In this document: piece by piece, positions 2,662-63,396 of the stretch
Layout of the letters: every line of letters begins with the position of its first letter
How positions within the stretch are numbered: the stretch's first letter is position 1
Source of the DNA: Candidatus Pacearchaeota archaeon UBA73
GTDB taxonomy: Archaea; Nanobdellota; Nanobdellia; Pacearchaeales; GW2011-AR1
Assembly (NCBI GenBank): GCA_002496015.1
Contig: DAIF01000001.1
Span: 8,752 to 72,751, forward strand
Length of the DNA: 64,000 nucleotides
Direction of reading: 5' to 3'
The notes under the pieces: generated by a model
Database searches by the model: none
What the model was told of the DNA's origin: nothing
The model's input: only the letters and a program-made list of their open reading frames with translations
Program-made: the position numbers and the translations under genes

Positions 2662-4657
2662 TTTTCTCGCTTTTCTTTAACTCAACATCTTTGTCAGCAT
2701 TGTTCACTGATTTCTCTTGCTCGTGAGAGTTTTCATCCTCCTTTACGTTGCCTTCTTTCTTCTCCGCAGCAGTCTCCGACTTTTCTTCCGGTTTTGCAGC
2801 GTCTTTTTTATCCGATTCTTTCTTAGCGTTAGTCTCCCCCCCTTCTTGATGTTCATCTGACAGATTCATTCTATTTGCAAGTTCTTTTATCTTCTCCGCA
2901 AGCTCTTCTTTATTCTTCAAAATATCTTCATTGACATTTTCGCCATAAGTTCTCTTTATGTTGATATAGAGGTTCGCTGCTGCCGAATAATTTCCTTGTT
3001 TCATGAATTCTTTCATCTGCTGGAATTGTACGTAAAGATTGAGAGCCTTCTCTTTCTTTTTCTTTTCAGCATATCTTATGTTCATTAATAAAAATATTAA
3101 ACTGAGGATAAAGATTGATATAAAAACTAAGGAGTATCTTACATAATAATCAAATTTATATTTTGTTCCAACTGTAAAACTATCAGCTCCGATTGCATAG
3201 TCTTTGTCACTGGATATTCTGGCATAAAACATATACTCTCCTATCATCAACTCTTTTGGAACATTTATCGATCTTTCTAACACTATCTCTTTTCCCATGA
3301 CCACTACTTCCTCAAATGAATTGTAAGTATTGCCATTAAAATCCCTCAAGGCATAATAAATCCCCGCCTCATGACTCACTGCGTCTTCATAGTTTGTTAT
3401 TTCTATCGAAGCGCTCACATTCTTTCCAGGCTTTACAAAATCTTCTAAAACCTCAACCACAATTTCATAACTCACATTCACAGGATTAACAAAGACTGCG
3501 ATAGGAATACGTACTTCTTGTGCACTGCTTATTATAAGTTCTCCATAATACTCGCCGGGTTCAAGGTTAATATCTGCCTGTACATCCATAACAATTCTTT
3601 TGGCTTCTTTGCTCGCAAGCGTAAAATTAGTATCACTTAAAAACAGGATTCTCTCTAATCCAGAGATTATTAAATTAAAGCTCAAGCTGTTTGTGCCTTG
3701 ATTAGTAATTTGAAAAACTTTGCTCACACTAAATCCTTGTTTAAGTGAGACAGAAAAGCTAGAAATATCTACAGAAAAATTGTTAGCAGATTCAGTCAGC
3801 GAACCCCTAACATCTTCAAATATTCTTTTTCTGACCCCTGCTGTGCCACTCCCCTCTCCCCCACTTTCCCCGCCAGAGCCACTCCCACCCCCCGAACTGC
3901 TTCCGCCAGAAGAACTTCCTCCCGGCGGGCTTCCGCCAGGTACAATTGGAGGTCTCTCATAAACAGAAAACTGTTTTTCTTCAGTGCAGTTTTCAAAGCC
4001 GACGCGGTCATATCCGCACAGTCTCCAAGTTATGAGACTTCCCGGCGGAACAACTATTTGCTCTGTAAATGAGGAATGGTTGCTTCTTCCAGAGATATTT
4101 TGCGTGTAGTTATGCCACTCGCTATAATTTGAACCAGCCCCTTCTTGTAATATCTCAAACACTACCCTATCCAATTCTCTGTCATCATACCAAATTGAGA
4201 AAAAATTTACAAAATCATTTTGGTAAATTATATTTTTATTGATAGATACATTTGAGTAATAAGGATGCAACAGGTCATCCCCCACATACAAATTAATGAC
4301 ATTGCTCTCAGTGGTATACCTTCCATCGCTTGCTTCTATAATCATCTTCCCGGTTGTATTCATTCCCGGCGGCGCAATAAGTGTTAAAATGCCCTCATCA
4401 GAAATAATAATATCAACGTTAATGTTTGATGTTGCATTGTAAGTCAGAGGATCATCTTCAAAATCAATGAAATAATCGTCTAAATCTAATATGTCTGCAT
4501 AAGTTCCTCCGTCAAATGAAATAAGAGAAATCTCCTTCAAAAGAAACGGTGCAGAGTTGCCCACGATTATGCCTGCTGTAGAATCTTCCGCCCCCAACAT
4601 CGGGGACAGAGCTATCAGGCAAAAAACAGCCAGCCAAAGCAATATACCTCTTCGCAT
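2639..4657 (-). CDS. Surface protein with signal peptide, Gly/Ser-rich linker, single C-terminal TM and K/E-rich cytoplasmic tail
   Basis: 672 aa. N-terminus MRRGILLWLAVFCLIALSPMLGA. Linker PGGSPPGGSSSGGSSSGGGSGSGGESGGEGSG. TM YSLVFISIFILSLIFLLMNI, then a lysine/glutamate-rich tail. Confidence 0.6.
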   Translation of the reverse strand: MRRGILLWLAVFCLIALSPMLGAEDSTAGIIVGNSAPFLLKEISLISFDGGTYADILDLDDYFIDFEDDPLTYNATSNINVDIIISDEGILTLIAPPGMNTTGKMIIEASDGRYTTESNVINLYVGDDLLHPYYSNVSINKNIIYQNDFVNFFSIWYDDRELDRVVFEILQEGAGSNYSEWHNYTQNISGRSNHSSFTEQIVVPPGSLITWRLCGYDRVGFENCTEEKQFSVYERPPIVPGGSPPGGSSSGGSSSGGGSGSGGESGGEGSGTAGVRKRIFEDVRGSLTESANNFSVDISSFSVSLKQGFSVSKVFQITNQGTNSLSFNLIISGLERILFLSDTNFTLASKEAKRIVMDVQADINLEPGEYYGELIISSAQEVRIPIAVFVNPVNVSYEIVVEVLEDFVKPGKNVSASIEITNYEDAVSHEAGIYYALRDFNGNTYNSFEEVVVMGKEIVLERSINVPKELMIGEYMFYARISSDKDYAIGADSFTVGTKYKFDYYVRYSLVFISIFILSLIFLLMNIRYAEKKKKEKALNLYVQFQQMKEFMKQGNYSAAANLYINIKRTYGENVNEDILKNKEELAEKIKELANRMNLSDEHQEGGETNAKKESDKKDAAKPEEKSETAAEKKEGNVKEDENSHEQEKSVNNADKDVELKKSEKIEDKKSD

Positions 4658-4707: not shown

Positions 4708-4772
4708 AATTTACATAATAAATGTTTAGTATAATTTATAAATAATAGAACCTCAAGATTAAACAGGGCAAA

Positions 4773-6818
4773 ATGAGTTCAAAAGAGAGGTATTTCACGA
4801 TTGTATGTCTGCTGTTTATTGGAGCAATCCTTTTACTACAACTTACTCATGCTGAGGAATCTCCCCCACCAGAAGACTCAGATATTCCACAGGATTCTAC
4901 CCCAGACGATTATCAAAATAGTACACAAGATTCTTCTGTCCAAGACCCTCCGGAAGACACTCAAAATGAAACTGAAGTGCCCGAGCTTCCAGAGATTCAG
5001 AGTCCCTCTCTCATCGTCGATCTCGCAGATGCGACAATTGAAGAAGGTGAAGATGCAATTATCACCATAGTAATTGACTCTCCAGACACAACCATTCAGA
5101 CCATTAGATTATCCTATGGAGATGGCAGTGAGAAAATTACCCATCCCGACAGAAGCGGATTCTATTCCGTTCAGGAGAACAAACTATTTTCGCAGCACGG
5201 TAACTATAATATTTTGGTAACAGTTGAATTCTCAGACTGGGAGGACCTTTCTGCTTCGCAAATTCTGAGCGTATCTCCATCAGAAGATTACGAACTTCTT
5301 AGTCAGGACCCTAATGATAAAAAGCCCACACTTTCTTTACTCTATCCGGTTAATGGGGCCATAATAAAATCTAAAAACATTGTCTTAAGGTTCAAGCCTA
5401 ACGATGATCGCTCTCTTAAGGAATGCAACTTTTCCATATACAAAGGAACATCAAGCACGCTAGAGTATCAAGAAGGTTTTCTCTCACCAGAATTAAACAA
5501 AGAATTATCCGTTTCACTTAAGGATTTTGAAAACACTGATTACACTTGGGAGGTAAAATGCACAGACAACAGCTCTCAATCCATAACACAATCTCAAATG
5601 TTCACAGTCAGACTACAGGAAAACGAATATGAGCAGGAAATTCTGGATCTAATGAACAAGGTAGGGGATTTTCTCGATAAAGAAAATTCCTTCAGCCCCG
5701 ATGAGAAAATGGTATTAAACCAGTTAGGAATTCTGGAGAATACTCGGTTCTATAAAAAAAGAATTTCTCAGATTAATCAGGAATTAAGCGAGAGTTATCT
5801 CTCTATCTTAGACGATAAAACACGAAGAGAAAAAGATCAAAAGCTTCTGGACGAACTCAAGGATATACGAAAAGACATCCCCTTAGATGTGGAAATAATC
5901 TACTCTGAAGAGTACATAACCAATTCGCTGCCGGTTTCTTTGGGAGAGATAGCTTCTCAATATGTAATGAATAAAGGTCTTAATTTGAATGAGAGAAAAA
6001 CCAAAATCTTATCAAAGAAGAACGAGGAGATTCAATCAAAAATTAGTTCAACAACAAAGATCCTCCAACTAGAAATAGAATATGAGAATGCAAATAAGCA
6101 GATTACTTTAATTCAAAAATCTCTTAGGGTTTCAGATGGTTTTAACAACGTCTTGGAGATACTCCCTTCTGAAATGGCTTCGCGAGACATAATCTTCATC
6201 ACAACCTCTCAAAAAATCGCGAACGGGCTTTACGAAATAAATCTGGCAGAATCCAAATCAGATAAGATAACTTACTATGTTTTCGAGAAAATAAGCCCTG
6301 AAACAATCAAAGAATCCAAAACCGTTCTGTTCGAAAAGCTTTCTACAGACGGATTTACCCTTGTCGGATTCAGCATACTCGGATTCGATGTTTATGAAAA
6401 CCACAAGCCTCTGTCAATCATTATTTTCTTCCTTGTAGCTCTAGCCGGTTCATTCACTTTTGTAAAGGTTCGTAAGAAGAACGCACCGCAATTAGATGAA
6501 ATCAAAGCGCTTCTTAAAAAAGGGAAAACTCACCTGAAGAAAGATAACTTGGAAGAAGCAAGAGAAGTCTATAAAGGGATCAGGGAAGAATACGAAAAGT
6601 TATCAAAGAAAGACAAAACTAAAATCTACAAAAAAATTAGTTTTTATGGAGAGCAGATAAACAAAAGAGATATGGTTGAACTGATAAAAGAATATAAAAT
6701 AGAAAAAAGAAAAAATACTGAACACGCAAAAGTTCTTTACGAAAGGATAAAACAAAAACATACAAAACTTCCGGAAAAATTCCAAAAAAAGGTTAGGGAA
6801 AAAATATTAATTGATTAA
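4773..6818 (+). CDS. Surface protein: signal peptide, acidic N-terminal region, C-terminal TM and K/E-rich tail
   Basis: 681 aa. N-terminus MSSKERYFTIVCLLFIGAILLLQLTHA. TM PLSIIIFFLVALAGSFTFV followed by KVRKK and a charged tail. Divergent from the 2639..4657 gene. Confidence 0.6.
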   Translation: MSSKERYFTIVCLLFIGAILLLQLTHAEESPPPEDSDIPQDSTPDDYQNSTQDSSVQDPPEDTQNETEVPELPEIQSPSLIVDLADATIEEGEDAIITIVIDSPDTTIQTIRLSYGDGSEKITHPDRSGFYSVQENKLFSQHGNYNILVTVEFSDWEDLSASQILSVSPSEDYELLSQDPNDKKPTLSLLYPVNGAIIKSKNIVLRFKPNDDRSLKECNFSIYKGTSSTLEYQEGFLSPELNKELSVSLKDFENTDYTWEVKCTDNSSQSITQSQMFTVRLQENEYEQEILDLMNKVGDFLDKENSFSPDEKMVLNQLGILENTRFYKKRISQINQELSESYLSILDDKTRREKDQKLLDELKDIRKDIPLDVEIIYSEEYITNSLPVSLGEIASQYVMNKGLNLNERKTKILSKKNEEIQSKISSTTKILQLEIEYENANKQITLIQKSLRVSDGFNNVLEILPSEMASRDIIFITTSQKIANGLYEINLAESKSDKITYYVFEKISPETIKESKTVLFEKLSTDGFTLVGFSILGFDVYENHKPLSIIIFFLVALAGSFTFVKVRKKNAPQLDEIKALLKKGKTHLKKDNLEEAREVYKGIREEYEKLSKKDKTKIYKKISFYGEQINKRDMVELIKEYKIEKRKNTEHAKVLYERIKQKHTKLPEKFQKKVREKILID

Positions 6819-14569: not shown

Positions 14570-14832
14570 CCGGTGCGGACGAGTCTGCGCGCTAGCCCCG
14601 CGCAATTCACAAACGGGCTTCATGGTGGACTTAAAGGAACGCGTGACGCAAAGAACGCGAAGTCTTGCCTCTAACGTTGAGGTTTTGTCCTGCTCGACCG
14701 TACTCTTGCGAACCGGGTCAGGCCTTGATCGGAGCAGCCCTAAGTGGGAAGTATGGTGCTTGTAGGGTAGCAAAGCTGAGGAAGTCGCAAGGTCGCTTCA
14801 CGCTCAATGCCGGGCCAGTTCCCCGCCGCACC
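14570..14832 (+). ncRNA. Signal recognition particle RNA (7S/SRP RNA), candidate
   Basis: A ~260-nt GC-rich island in an AT-rich genome. 5' end CCGGUGCGG pairs with 3' end CCGCCGCACC. Contains the helix-8-like motif GGGUCAGGCC...GGAGCAGCC (compare bacterial/archaeal GGUCAGGNCC-GGAA-GGNAGCAGCC). A TATA-like cttaaata sits ~25 nt upstream. Overlapping ORFs 14564..14773 and 14665..14910 are taken as spurious. Confidence 0.6.
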
Positions 14833-60361: not shown

Positions 60362-60777
60362 TAGTTGTCATTAGAATTGCAGGTCAAGTCCACTTGACAG
60401 AAGAGATGGAGGAGACGTTCAACAGGATTAGACTGAGAAGAAAATATTCTGCGACGCTGCTGCCAGAAACTAAAGAAACCGCAAAGTTGCTTTTGCGTAT
60501 TCGAAACTTTATTTCATACGGTCAGATAGATACCGCCACTCTTGCAAACTTACTAGCTGCTCGAGCTCAGCCGCTAAAGGCCGGCGCGAAGATTGATCCA
60601 AAAAAGATTATGACTGAGATTGAGAAAAAATCTCTTCAGGAACTCGGGCTAAAGCCGTTCTTCAGACTTCACCCCCCAAGGGGAGGGATTGACTCAAAGA
60701 AACACGCTGGAGGAAAAGGCAAGGGCGTGCTCGGAGAGAATAAAAATATAAATGCTCTAATCGAGAGGATGTTATAA
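60359..60777 (+). CDS. rpl30: 50S ribosomal protein L30 (uL30)
   Basis: Start refined to MIVVIRIAGQV. Confidence 0.85.
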
Positions 60778-60962
60778 TGGTTTCAAAAGGATTTGCTTGG
60801 GAATGTGAATGTGGAAACATCGAATACGGATCATATCCTCCGGAAGAATGCTCGCAATGCGCCGCAGTTGACAGCTTCATAAAAGTTCCGGAAGACGAAA
60901 TTGCTGAGAGGGAAGAGGAAAACGTCTTGGCAAAAAGACCTTTGGAGGAAGAAGATGATTAA
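60777..60962 (+). CDS. Small Zn-ribbon protein (61 aa) encoded between rpl30 and rpl15
   Basis: WECECGNIEYG...CSQC followed by an acidic tail. Starts at the rpl30 stop; overlaps rpl15 start by 8 nt. Confidence 0.4.
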   Translation: MVSKGFAWECECGNIEYGSYPPEECSQCAAVDSFIKVPEDEIAEREEENVLAKRPLEEEDD

Positions 60963-61350
60963 GAAAAGAACGAAAAGGTCGCGGTTTAGGGGAACCCACA
61001 CTCACGGTAGAGGATTCAAGAAGAAAGCTCGTGGTTCTGGTCATCGTGGCGGAGTCGGAAGGGCGGGCAGCGGCAAAAAAGCCGATCAGAAAAAAGATCT
61101 GATTAATTTTCCATTTGGAAAAGACAAAGCCCTAAGAAGAAAGCCCAAGATAAAGCTAAATACCATAAATCTCTCGCAGATATCGGAAAAGTTCGCGGGG
61201 CAAAAAGAAGTAAAACTTCAGGGTTATAAAATTCTAAGCAACGGGGACATAAAGGAGAAAATGACAATTTACGCAGACGCTGCATCAGAATCCGCAATAG
61301 GTAAAATTAAAAAAGCCGGCGGAGATATTGTTTTAACTAACAAGAAGTAA
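60955..61350 (+). CDS. rpl15: 50S ribosomal protein L15 (uL15)
   Basis: Start refined to MIKKRTKRSRFRGTHTHGRGFKKKARGSGHRGG. Confidence 0.85.
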   Translation: MIKKRTKRSRFRGTHTHGRGFKKKARGSGHRGGVGRAGSGKKADQKKDLINFPFGKDKALRRKPKIKLNTINLSQISEKFAGQKEVKLQGYKILSNGDIKEKMTIYADAASESAIGKIKKAGGDIVLTNKK

Positions 61351-61392
61351 CGAAACCAAAAAATTTTTATAGTCTTACTTTCTCAAAAAATT

Positions 61393-62169
61393 ATGAAACA
61401 AATCAATCAAAGAATAGCAGAAACTGGAATTTTTGTATTTAGTTATGACCCCCAAACTAGAAAGTTCACATATTCGCGTCCTTTCACGACAAAAGAAGCA
61501 AAAGACTTAGCTGAACAAACCAATGCAACAATTAATTCTCAATATAAAGGTGTTAAGGGTCTAAGAAAAGGTCTTGCAGCTAAAAATGGCAAATTAGTTA
61601 ATATGAGTACGCTTAAAGGAATCGTCGCAAATAGGGTTCTTATGCAATCTACAAATGCCCAACAATGGTTGCCGACAATTCAAGAAGGAATCACCTTACA
61701 AAGAGCGGGAATGTTTCCTTCAGGAATTTTGATTGATATAGGTATTGCTTTATACAATGAACAAGCCCCCAATAAAGAAATTGCCAAATCTTTAGCTAAT
61801 GAAGGGAGATATGTTTTGCCCGTTTTAGCTTCATTCAAATCTCTTGATTTATCCCTCGGAGGAAAAAGATACGGCGTCACTCCTCGATTAGTTTCGGCGG
61901 ATGGCTTAACCTCTGGAAAAGATGCAACAAAATTAATGCAGGCCAATTCTTTTTATCAAGGAGAAGGTACAGGAGTTCGCGGGGTGTGCCACAGCAACGG
62001 CGACTTCTGGTGTGCCGATTGGAACGACGACTTGGGCTACTTCTACGAGGACTGTCGGGTGGGTCGTTTTTCTGCCAAAGGCAGCGCGCAAAAATTGGAG
62101 GAAGAGGCTTTAGGCGCGTTTGCTCCAATCAGAAAAAGCCTAGATTCGGTTCTTGCTCTGGCACAATAA
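61393..62169 (+). CDS. DGR target (variable) protein; VR lies in its C-terminal region
   Basis: 258 aa. The C-terminal segment VCHSNGDFWCADWNDDLGYFYEDCRVGRF is the protein product of the VR (template-like repeat lies downstream). The CRVGRF ending resembles C-type-lectin/FGE-like DGR variable domains. Confidence 0.65.
   Translation: MKQINQRIAETGIFVFSYDPQTRKFTYSRPFTTKEAKDLAEQTNATINSQYKGVKGLRKGLAAKNGKLVNMSTLKGIVANRVLMQSTNAQQWLPTIQEGITLQRAGMFPSGILIDIGIALYNEQAPNKEIAKSLANEGRYVLPVLASFKSLDLSLGGKRYGVTPRLVSADGLTSGKDATKLMQANSFYQGEGTGVRGVCHSNGDFWCADWNDDLGYFYEDCRVGRFSAKGSAQKLEEEALGAFAPIRKSLDSVLALAQ
61981..62064 (+). repeat. DGR variable repeat (VR)
   Basis: ~80-nt match to TR at 62351..62434; 17 of 20 mismatches are at positions where TR has A. 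Confidence 0.7.
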
Positions 62170-62350
62170 AACATTTAAAGAATATTTTCTTAATTTTACT
62201 CCTAGCCAAATGGCTGGGCCACACGCTGGTTAATAGCGCTCGTAATTGAGTCATAAAATACAATCATTGCATCTAGTAAACAGTGAATCGATGGATGAGT
62301 TGAAATTTACAATGATGGTGAAACTTTGATTAATCAGCTACACAGTTCTC

Positions 62351-62434
62351 AGGGTGTACTGCAACAACGACGGCAACTGGAATGCCAATTGGAACGACAA
62401 CTTGGACAACTTCAACGAGAACTGTCGAATGGCC
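62351..62434 (+). repeat. DGR template repeat (TR), AAC-rich, immediately upstream of RT
   Basis: gtg tac tgc aac aac gac ggc aac tgg aat gcc aat tgg aac gac aac ttg gac aac ttc aac gag aac tgt cga. Non-coding (preceded by an in-frame TGA, no ATG) and AAC-codon-rich as in DGR TRs. Confidence 0.7.
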
Positions 62435-62451
62435 TGGCTTGCTAGGAAAAA

Positions 62452-63351
62452 ATGAAAACTTATAGTAACTCGCACAAAAAAATAATCTCTTTTGAAAATC
62501 TTATCCTAGCTTGGAAAAAAGCTAGAAAAGGTAAAACTAAAAAAGATTATGTTATAAAGTTTGAAGATGAATTATTCTGTAATCTAATGGCCCTTCATTA
62601 TGAATTAAAATTCCATGCTTATTCGCCACGTCCGCTCGTAACTTTCATCTTGCGCGACCCAAAAACTCGGGTAATTTCAAAATCCGACTTTAGAGATAGA
62701 ATTGTTCATCACGCTATTTGCAATATCATTGAGCCAATATTTGACAAAACTTTCATCCATGATTCGTGTTCAAACAGAAAGAACAAGGGAAATTTATTTG
62801 CCCTCATGCGTTTACAAAAATTTATCAGAAAGATATCAAAAAACGGATTAATTGCAAAAAATAAATTTCAGGACAATAATTTTGTAGTCGGATACTGTCT
62901 AAAAGCAGACATCAAACACTATTTTCAAGAAGTTGATCACAATATTCGCTACGTAGATGATTTTGTTATCTTACATCGCTCTAAAGAACAGTTGGTCTTG
63001 TGGAAAGAGCAGATTAATAACTTTCTGAAAGAAAATTTAAAGATTGAACTACACTCTCAAAAATCAAGGATCATTCCGCTTTCAAAAGGGATAGACTTTG
63101 TAGGATTTCGAAATTTTTATCACTATAAACTTCCGAGAAAAAGAAATATAAGAAAAATGCAGAGAAGAATTCAAGCATTTCTCGAAGAAGAAATTTCATA
63201 CCAAGAATTAATGGAAAGTTATCAAGGTTGGCAGGCGTATGTAAAATGGTCGAGCTCTCTTAACTTAAGAAGAAATTTGTTAAAAGAAATTCAGAAAGTA
63301 AAACAATCTCTAGTCGAGAAGAGAAAAACATCCTTACAGCATTCTCGCTAA
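62452..63351 (+). CDS. DGR-type reverse transcriptase, apparently lacking the motif 4/B region
   Basis: N-terminus matches DGR RTs (ENLILAWKKARKGK; ISKSDFRDRIVHHAICNIIEPIFDKTFIHDSCSNRKNKG). Motif A LKADIKHYFQEVDH is followed after only 3 residues by motif C YVDDFVIL. Thumb-like GIDFVGFRNF. Confidence 0.75.
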   Translation: MKTYSNSHKKIISFENLILAWKKARKGKTKKDYVIKFEDELFCNLMALHYELKFHAYSPRPLVTFILRDPKTRVISKSDFRDRIVHHAICNIIEPIFDKTFIHDSCSNRKNKGNLFALMRLQKFIRKISKNGLIAKNKFQDNNFVVGYCLKADIKHYFQEVDHNIRYVDDFVILHRSKEQLVLWKEQINNFLKENLKIELHSQKSRIIPLSKGIDFVGFRNFYHYKLPRKRNIRKMQRRIQAFLEEEISYQELMESYQGWQAYVKWSSSLNLRRNLLKEIQKVKQSLVEKRKTSLQHSR

Positions 63352-63396
63352 TTTTCCCAATATCTTTAAAAAGTCTAATTTCAGAATAATATAAAA

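Follow-up and report, generated by a model that had tools for sequence, protein, structure and literature searches.

Diversity-generating retroelements (DGRs) are already known from DPANN archaea, and one further cassette is no news in itself. The AvpA systems of Nanoarchaeota (Paul 2015; Handa 2016, PDB 5ioo) have a short internal variable repeat (VR), an invariant last strand encoded by the initiation of mutagenic homing (IMH) sequence, two C-terminal helices and an intragenic hairpin (PMC5006420). In the survey of Wu et al. (2018), most DGRs of candidate phyla radiation (CPR) bacteria and DPANN archaea carry the accessory gene avd (architecture B3); DGRs free of accessory genes make up 29% of the catalogue, and Avd is thus not obligatory (PMC5758913). 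The locus described here lies in a 64,000-nucleotide (nt) stretch of contig DAIF01000001.1 from Candidatus Pacearchaeota archaeon UBA73, referred to below as the window. It is a DGR by descent and architecture, from a Pacearchaeota-like nanoarchaeal clade and without an Avd gene, and it stands closest to the nanoarchaeal systems that Paul and Handa described and to the class without accessory genes in Wu et al. We consider it probable that this is a recently acquired cassette whose own reverse transcriptase (RT) is dead and whose VR is frozen.

With the DGR of Bordetella phage BPP-1 (mtd-avd-TR-brt) the locus shares an adenine-specific flow from template repeat (TR) to VR, the position of the VR at the 3' end of a gene for a protein of (here predicted) C-type-lectin fold, a GC-rich IMH-like end followed by a hairpin, and a homologous RT. 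It differs from BPP-1 in lacking avd, in the gap of about 20 nt between TR and RT (a 140-nt spacer in BPP-1), in carrying a 146-nt RNA motif, RT-16, 5' of the TR, in its host, an archaeal chromosome, and in an RT that has no counterpart of residues ~150-210 of the phage enzyme (bRT). With the AvpA systems it has in common the host group, a variable protein of ~256-258 amino acids (aa), a single C-type-lectin-like domain with inserts, a short internal VR (~27-30 codons), an invariant last strand encoded by the IMH-like end, some 40 residues after the VR that form two C-terminal helices, and a hairpin inside the coding sequence; the window target, however, shows no detectable sequence homology to AvpA. 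The avd-less 'Architecture A1' DGRs (Wu et al. 2018, PMC5758913) have the same order of target, TR and RT with no accessory gene, whereas RT-16 is not part of their description. No plausible open reading frame (ORF) of at least 40 aa that could encode Avd was found between target and RT in the window, and none in related cassettes either.

The repeats and the two genes associated with them are arranged as follows:
61393..62169 (+): target (variable protein) gene, 258 aa, without a Pfam, NCBIfam or PADLOC family
61975..62062 (+): VR, encoding residues ~195-224 (VRGVCHSNGDFWCADWNDDLGYFYEDCRVG) of the target protein
62050..62071 (+): IMH-like 3' end of the VR, GACTGTCGGGTGGGTCGTTTTT; its TR counterpart, GACTGTCGAATGGCCTGGCTTG, differs
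62072..62084 (+): GC-rich hairpin CTGCC-AAA-GGCAG, 10 nt downstream of the VR and inside the coding sequence
62345..62432 (+): non-coding TR, containing 28 adenines; read in the VR frame it has 10 AAY codons
62452..63351 (+): RT gene of the DGR clade, encoding 299 aa and shortened internally by an in-frame deletion

The original prediction had described about 80 nt of homology between the VR and a non-coding segment, full of AAC codons and lying directly upstream of an RT gene, with about 20 mismatches, some 17 of them at TR adenines. A repeat search returned a single direct repeat (61974-62062 and 62344-62432; 370-nt offset, ungapped, 78% identity), and comparison of its 88-nt core (TR 62345-62432 against VR 61975-62062) substantiated this description. 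Mismatches occur at 16 of the 28 TR adenines and at 4 of the 60 other bases. Over the segments first proposed (61981-62064 and 62351-62434), they number 21, with 16 at A, two each at G and C and one at T of the TR (binomial p = 7e-5 for the adenine bias). The prediction was to fall if a careful alignment removed the adenine bias; with the substitutions tabulated by TR base, as it had suggested, the bias stands. Fifteen of the 16 adenine mismatches affect codon position 1 or 2, and in the VR frame the TR contains eight AAC and two AAT codons. The VR occupies the 3' part of the target gene, with 35 further codons downstream of it, and the TR directly follows RT-16 and ends 16-20 nt short of the RT start codon (62452). 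Searched for in the 64 kb with every A relaxed to N, the TR pattern matches the VR and TR sites only; shuffled sequences lead one to expect zero matches.

Could the two segments merely be diverged paralogous fragments with no retroelement history? The four non-adenine mismatches, all of them interior (61979, T>G; 61990, T>C; 61991, G>A; 62003, G>A), would fit such an origin, but the strength of the adenine bias refutes it, as do the setting of the second copy, which is non-coding, has AAY at ten codons and is flanked by an RT gene and an Rfam motif associated with RTs, and the recurrence of the same arrangement in more than ten loci, related cassettes among them differing in a purely adenine-specific manner. 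We regard this explanation as having practically no chance of being correct. Among the related loci used for comparison (L001-L031), six cassettes (L001, L005, L011, L012, L020 and L023) have mismatches at 121 of 171 TR adenines and at none of 351 other bases. The window comes close to the relatives' 71% in its share of mismatched adenines; its four non-adenine mismatches are atypical for the clade (4/60 against 0/351; Fisher p = 4e-4). One codon reads TGC in the TR and CAC in the VR, whereas relatives have CGY in both repeats; therefore, each repeat is one transition away from the family state, a pattern that fits drift in both since the last homing event. The excess of non-adenine mismatches may be taken as an independent sign of inactivity, although the argument is not watertight.

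TR and VR part ways after ..TGG. The VR ends in CTGTCGGGTGGGTCG and the TR in CTGTCGAATGGCCTG (TR end motif, CTGTCGAATGG), an asymmetry of the IMH/IMH* type. The sequence CTGTCGGGTGGG at the VR end is kept in 23 of 23 related VRs, and the IMH-like end encodes an invariant CRVGR strand. The hairpin downstream is found as CTGCC-GWA-GGCAG in nearly all loci, and one of its T:A pairs is replaced by C:G in L004 and L014, a compensatory change for which L010 shows the T:G intermediate. Hairpins or cruciforms are known for AvpA and for the Bordetella phage DGR, and the window hairpin agrees with them in position and form (PMC5006420). By analogy, both the IMH-like end and the hairpin are candidates for a role in homing.

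The RT gene departs from its relatives at one point:
62941..62947 (+): RT deletion junction, ..GATCACAATATTC-GCTACGTAGATGAT..; 213 nt missing relative to L025

The window RT finds its best match in the Protein Data Bank in the phage enzyme bRT (8ub7; E = 9.7e-32). The matches to RTs of group II introns and retrons are far weaker, and none of the defence-RT models of PADLOC and NCBIfam reaches its cutoff. The original prediction had seen DGR-RT-like motifs at the N-terminus of this protein; the closest solved relative is indeed bRT, but the signature motif 4 is absent. At 299 aa, the protein is the shortest of the 120 best homologs listed, the other 119 measuring 333-451 aa. In an alignment with ten orthologs, and at the DNA level in comparison with L025, L026 and L001, a deletion of ~71 codons lies between motif 3 and motif 5 (HYFQEVDHN / IRYVDDF). 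The missing block includes GMPLGNLTSQFFANVYLNELDYF and its flanks and thus all of motif 4 (LGNLTSQ), which is present in every one of the ten orthologs (as IGNLTSQ in one); the DGR signature [I/V/L]GxxxSQ is gone together with ~60 neighbouring residues. A scan of the 120 listed homologs found motif 4 missing in the window RT and in two others, not inspected further. A microhomology, (A/C)TTC, is visible at both deletion edges in relatives. Pfam RVT_1 covers residues 164-220 only, and the alignment with 8ub7 is broken into two pieces (4-129 with 5-130; 161-272 with 207-315), whereas the intact ortholog P0003 matches bRT residues 3-315 in one piece (E = 4e-41).

In bRT, the motif B/4 helix builds the pocket for deoxynucleotide (dNTP) and template; I181 of the signature motif promotes adenine misincorporation and dNTP binding, and Q187 sits against the template (PMC7826257; bioRxiv 10.1101/2023.10.23.563531). 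Because this helix is deleted, the window RT is most likely inactive. We know of no active RT among the right-hand polymerases that lacks the motif-4 helix. With motif 4 lost, the cassette's own enzyme is most likely catalytically dead and its VR frozen. The claim of mutagenic homing thus holds as far as architecture, descent and adenine bias go, while a working state cannot be assumed for a copy that lacks the RT signature by which DGRs are defined: it is a DGR by descent, not one that demonstrably works. For the same reason, the earlier statement that the cassette defines a hypervariable ligand-binding protein was too strong for this copy.

An RT encoded elsewhere might serve the window VR, and related loci bear on this point. 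Over 6.3 kb, loci L004 and L014 share 99.55% identity. They differ at 19 positions in the 2.3 kb that surround the target; 16 of these fall in the VR, and all 16 coincide with adenines of the family-consensus TR. Of the adjoining RT a relic of 37 aa is left, and the nearest 5 kb contain no TR. Since these VRs have been diversified next to an RT relic and with no TR nearby, this comparison indicates that diversification in trans must occur in the target family. Six orphan targets (L002, L003, L008, L015, L016 and L022) have no adjacent RT, TR or RT-16 and keep the IMH-like end and the hairpin; they may likewise be served in trans. One of them, L002:3923-4711, is the closest homolog of the window target (72% identity). 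By extension, an intact DGR RT elsewhere in the genome could still diversify the window VR, via the local TR or a closely similar TR of its own, and the window's IMH-like end, hairpin and RT-16 are intact. Against this, neither a second VR or TR (by the A-to-N pattern) nor another RT or target (by tblastn) was found within the 64-kb window, and it follows from the four non-adenine differences that the local TR, as it now reads, was not the template of the most recent homing. We therefore regard continued diversification of the window VR in trans as unlikely.

In a separate observation, two near-identical tRNA-Gln(CTG) genes (4740-4812 and 6129-6203) flank the target and RT relic of L004/L014. 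Such bracketing is the pattern of site-specific integration at tRNA genes and hints that cassettes may travel on, or as, integrative elements.

Several other points weigh against a dead RT and a frozen VR in the window. The catalytic aspartates are kept (D153, corresponding to bRT D138; D169/D170 of YVDD, corresponding to bRT D215/D216). The RT frame is still open, yet an in-frame deletion stays open without selection. No damage is apparent in RT-16, in the IMH-like end or the hairpin, or in the promoter-like box ahead of the target, and the substitutions in the TR 3' flank (see below) preserve the proposed pairing with RT-16, which suggests that selection continued to act on the RNA for a while once the lineage had split from its relatives. 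Orphan targets still diversify (L004, L014), so that an RT acting in trans is possible. L013, with an intact RT, nonetheless has seven non-adenine mismatches, from which it follows that such mismatches alone do not prove inactivity. Lastly, the deletion is seen in one contig, and a look-up of the RT in a contig index gave no second, independent record; the assembly may be wrong at this point, or an intact RT may exist as a minor allele.

Some of these points would also suit a fully active cassette, in which either assembly or consensus building has produced a spurious deletion, or the RT still works in its shortened form: the ORF is open, the deletion in frame, the catalytic aspartates and all cis elements are present, and the proportion of mismatched adenines is near that of the relatives. 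The conservation of the motif-4 block in ten of ten aligned orthologs, the structural role of the deleted block in bRT and the excess of non-adenine mismatches speak the other way. An identical 299-aa protein is present under both NCBI and Logan, which would be mild evidence against a one-off assembler error if the two assemblies are independent. On balance, full activity seems to us quite improbable, and loss of RT function remains the explanation that we favour.

The cassette is flanked by ribosomal-operon genes, uL15 (Pfam Ribosomal_L27A) upstream and secY downstream, and its outer parts are as follows:
61329..63392 (+): inserted DGR cassette, 2,064 nt replacing ~18 nt of the ancestral uL15-secY junction
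61333..61351 (+): imperfect palindrome TTAACTAACAAGAAGTAAC, cassette 5' end, now the last codons and stop of uL15
61356..61373 (+): A/T-rich box AAAAAATTTTTATAG, resembling a B recognition element (BRE) and TATA box, ~25 nt upstream of the target ATG; putative promoter

Locus L027, from a biogas-fermenter metagenome, is 94.3% identical to the window in DNA over 6.4 kb and lacks the cassette: homology ends at 61328 and restarts at 63393, and in L027 only 2 nt separate the uL15 stop from the secY ATG. The same empty site is found in L028 and L029 (uL15 82% identical; one Pacearchaeota assembly). The insertion has a GC content of 35.9% (31.8% for the RT gene) against 42.7% for the flanking genes. 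On the evidence of the empty sites in these three loci and of the lower GC content, the insertion is judged recent. The C-terminus of uL15 reads GGDIVLTNKK* in the window and GGDIILKKA* or GGDIMVKKA* in relatives without the insertion. Irrespective of the gene that lies upstream, every related locus has, ahead of its target gene, a TTA(A)CTA-N-TAGTAACA element and then a BRE/TATA-like box, which identifies the palindrome as the conserved 5' end of the cassette. All target homologs are preceded by a conserved AAAGGTTTAAATA box, and the window box occupies the equivalent position. At the other end, no conservation was found past the RT stop. Of 24 related target loci, not one is set in a ribosomal operon.

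Neither an integrase nor a terminal repeat was detected at the cassette, and no target-site duplication either. A 24-nt inverted repeat (I1, 71% complementary) was considered as a terminal repeat and rejected, its left arm lying partly in ancestral uL15 sequence; inspection of the junctions for a target-site duplication gave nothing convincing, and this line of evidence for transposition was likewise abandoned.

Two observations concern the downstream junction and its neighbourhood. The 44 nt from the RT stop to the secY ATG (63352-63395, +) are part of the insertion and contain a TATA-like box, CTTTAAAAAG; secY expression may now need read-through from the cassette or this imported promoter-like sequence. 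In L030 (516-4266), another DGR-clade RT lies three genes downstream of uL15-secY, past EMC3-like and prefoldin genes and in convergent orientation, a second, independent association of such an RT with the uL15-secY neighbourhood.

The interval between target and TR is taken up by a structured RNA, whose proposed pairing partner lies beyond the TR:
62201..62346 (+): RT-16 RNA motif (Rfam RF03019), structured 5' leader abutting the TR
62430..62446 (+): TR 3' flank UGGCCUGGCU-U-GCUAGG, complementary to both strands of the RT-16 5' hairpin

The discoverers of RT-16 gave it no function; only RT-10 was tied to a DGR, and for the other RT motifs such a link was speculated upon (Weinberg et al. 2017, PMC5737381). 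With 75.6 bits against a gathering score of 50, the match in the window spans the entire covariance model (positions 1-158 of 158), and RT-16 is here placed as the 5' leader of the TR. It also lies between target stop and TR in 11 related loci (66-104 bits), and its end coincides exactly with the TR start in 12 of 12 cassettes. In the window, the first hairpin is shorter and one inner helix unpaired. Decay of RT-16 was considered as evidence of inactivity and dropped, the window score falling within the range of the relatives.

The TR 3' flank is complementary to the RT-16 5' hairpin at 62201-62206 (CCUAGC) and 62212-62221 (GGCUGGGCCA). In relatives it reads UGGCUCAGCC-A-GCUAGG, invariant in 8 of 10 readable loci and one base off in each of L023 and L025. 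RNAalifold pairs the flank with both hairpin strands, giving 16-17 bp that enclose RT-16 and the TR, with 98.8% of alignment cells paired; L023 carries one compensatory change (C:G to U:A) and L025 two broken pairs, and all four window-specific flank substitutions keep pairing through wobbles. In a shuffle control the long-range duplex was not significant (87/500), and a local hairpin fits equally well. The duplex is compatible with these data, and we keep it as a hypothesis.

Damaged RT genes are, to judge from the loci compared, common in this clade. Intact RTs are found only in L001, L013, L023, L025, L026, L030 and L031; those of L005, L006, L011, L012, L004/L014 and the window are damaged. 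In RT genes of the clade, long simple-sequence repeats code for the loop that immediately precedes motif 4. In-frame tracts are G9 (L001:7815-7823, L025:1182-1190 and L030 near 1331) or (AG)10 (L013 near 6663-6682 and L031 near 3213-3232), and motif 4 is out of frame behind a G11 in L011 (near 2763-2773) and an (AG)11 in L006 (near 6701-6722). The loop contains GGG or RERE in 25 of 116 RT homologs. These repeats look like a slippage-prone on/off switch of the RT, although pseudogenes or assembly errors at repeats could also account for them; a literature search surfaced no paper linking DGR RTs to repeat-mediated phase variation. The window deletion removes exactly this repeat-encoded loop region.

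Damage of other kinds was also observed. In L012 (6500-6600) the RT ends after ..KADIKHYFYEV and unrelated sequence follows; the break nearly coincides with the left edge of the window deletion (..KADIKHYFQEVDHN, window 62930-62947), which may mark a recombination-prone spot or be due to chance. In L005/L018 (1625-1692) the RT is frameshifted near residue 100, and TR and VR still differ by 19 adenine mismatches and no others.

These observations can be combined into a more speculative proposal, which we put forward tentatively and regard as possible rather than likely. Two features not described before would be at work in this clade: RT-16 would be a scaffold that binds the RT, and the RT would be switched by repeat slippage. 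The window copy would then be a permanent 'off' allele. The strands of the RT-16 5' hairpin may pair with the TR 3' flank and so enclose the template, as the 'cPRT Stop' duplex of the Bordetella DGR likewise does. G9 and (AG)10 in the loop 5' of motif 4 may correspond to the on state and G11 and (AG)11 to the off state, and the switch region and motif 4 may have been deleted together after the move into the uL15-secY junction.

Leaving this proposal aside, the history and mode of action that we infer for the cassette, with the function of its own RT lost, can be outlined. From 5' to 3' it comprises the palindrome and the promoter, the target with its VR, the IMH-like end and the hairpin, and then RT-16, the TR and the RT. 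In working copies, the RT would bind the RT-16-TR transcript, after the Bordetella paradigm, and the TR would be copied into cDNA with random misincorporation opposite adenines; this cDNA would take the place of the VR, with the hairpin and the GC-rich IMH-like end directing the exchange, and some 12-16 residues would be rewritten on the binding face of a protein of C-type-lectin fold. The window copy entered the uL15-secY junction of the ribosomal-protein operon recently, and its VR bears the scars of past adenine mutagenesis. Since then its RT would have lost ~71 codons including all of motif 4; the VR would now be frozen, and TR and VR would have begun to drift at non-adenine sites.

The target protein obtained no family assignment from Pfam, NCBIfam, PADLOC or sequence and profile searches of the PDB. 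The sole PDB 'hit', a de novo designed protein (E = 0.2-0.9), was rejected. The family is seen only in metagenome-assembled genomes of Nanoarchaeota and in metagenomes, with 47 close homologs; searched exhaustively by profile, it comprises 109 clusters at 50% identity. In a 36-member alignment the scaffold is conserved and the VR columns are hypervariable except for a fixed W-A-W-L-F-CRVGR frame. Modelling of the target, suggested earlier for its C-terminus with a C-type-lectin or formylglycine-generating enzyme (FGE)-like fold in mind, yielded the former: the target models as a C-type-lectin-like fold in which the VR supplies the last strands and the loop, and the invariant final strand is encoded by the IMH-like end. 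PDB searches with the family profile and with a broader profile found no homology to AvpA (5ioo) up to E = 10. Even the broad profile gives no sequence link, and the target represents a lectin-fold family separate from AvpA.

Three features of the window outside the cassette deserve mention. A 61-aa ORF between uL30 and uL15 (60777-60962, +) has CxC..CxxC cysteines, an acidic tail and no precomputed Pfam match; its position is kept in L027 (5823-6008) and in L028/L029 (3818-4000), and it may be an unannotated zinc-ribbon ribosomal or ribosome-associated protein. The uL15 ORF (60901-61350, +), with its mechanical TTG start at 60901, overlaps this small ORF; the true start is likely the ATG at 60955 (MIKKRTK...), as in homolog P0168 (131 aa) and relatives. 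Finally, the signal recognition particle (SRP) RNA at 14575-14826 (+) matches Bacteria_large_SRP (63.8 bits, gathering score 60) and not the archaeal model, on a contig otherwise archaeal; a lower-scoring match of the same clan was suppressed.

For automated DGR finders the locus is a caution, in that an adenine-biased TR/VR pair beside an open RT may still be non-functional. Three aspects merit attention: the uL15-secY insertion, the link between RT-16 and a clade of DGRs, and the repeats seen in related RT genes. The window offers a dated case of probable DGR decay, with a 94%-identical relative carrying the empty site to bracket in time both the acquisition and the presumed loss of RT function. 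It shows that a DGR cassette without an integrase can land in the most conserved operon of the cell, where the insertion rewrote the C-terminus of uL15 without destroying the gene. Moreover, RT-16, until now an orphan Rfam motif, would gain a concrete role as the 5' leader of the TR across a clade of DGRs.

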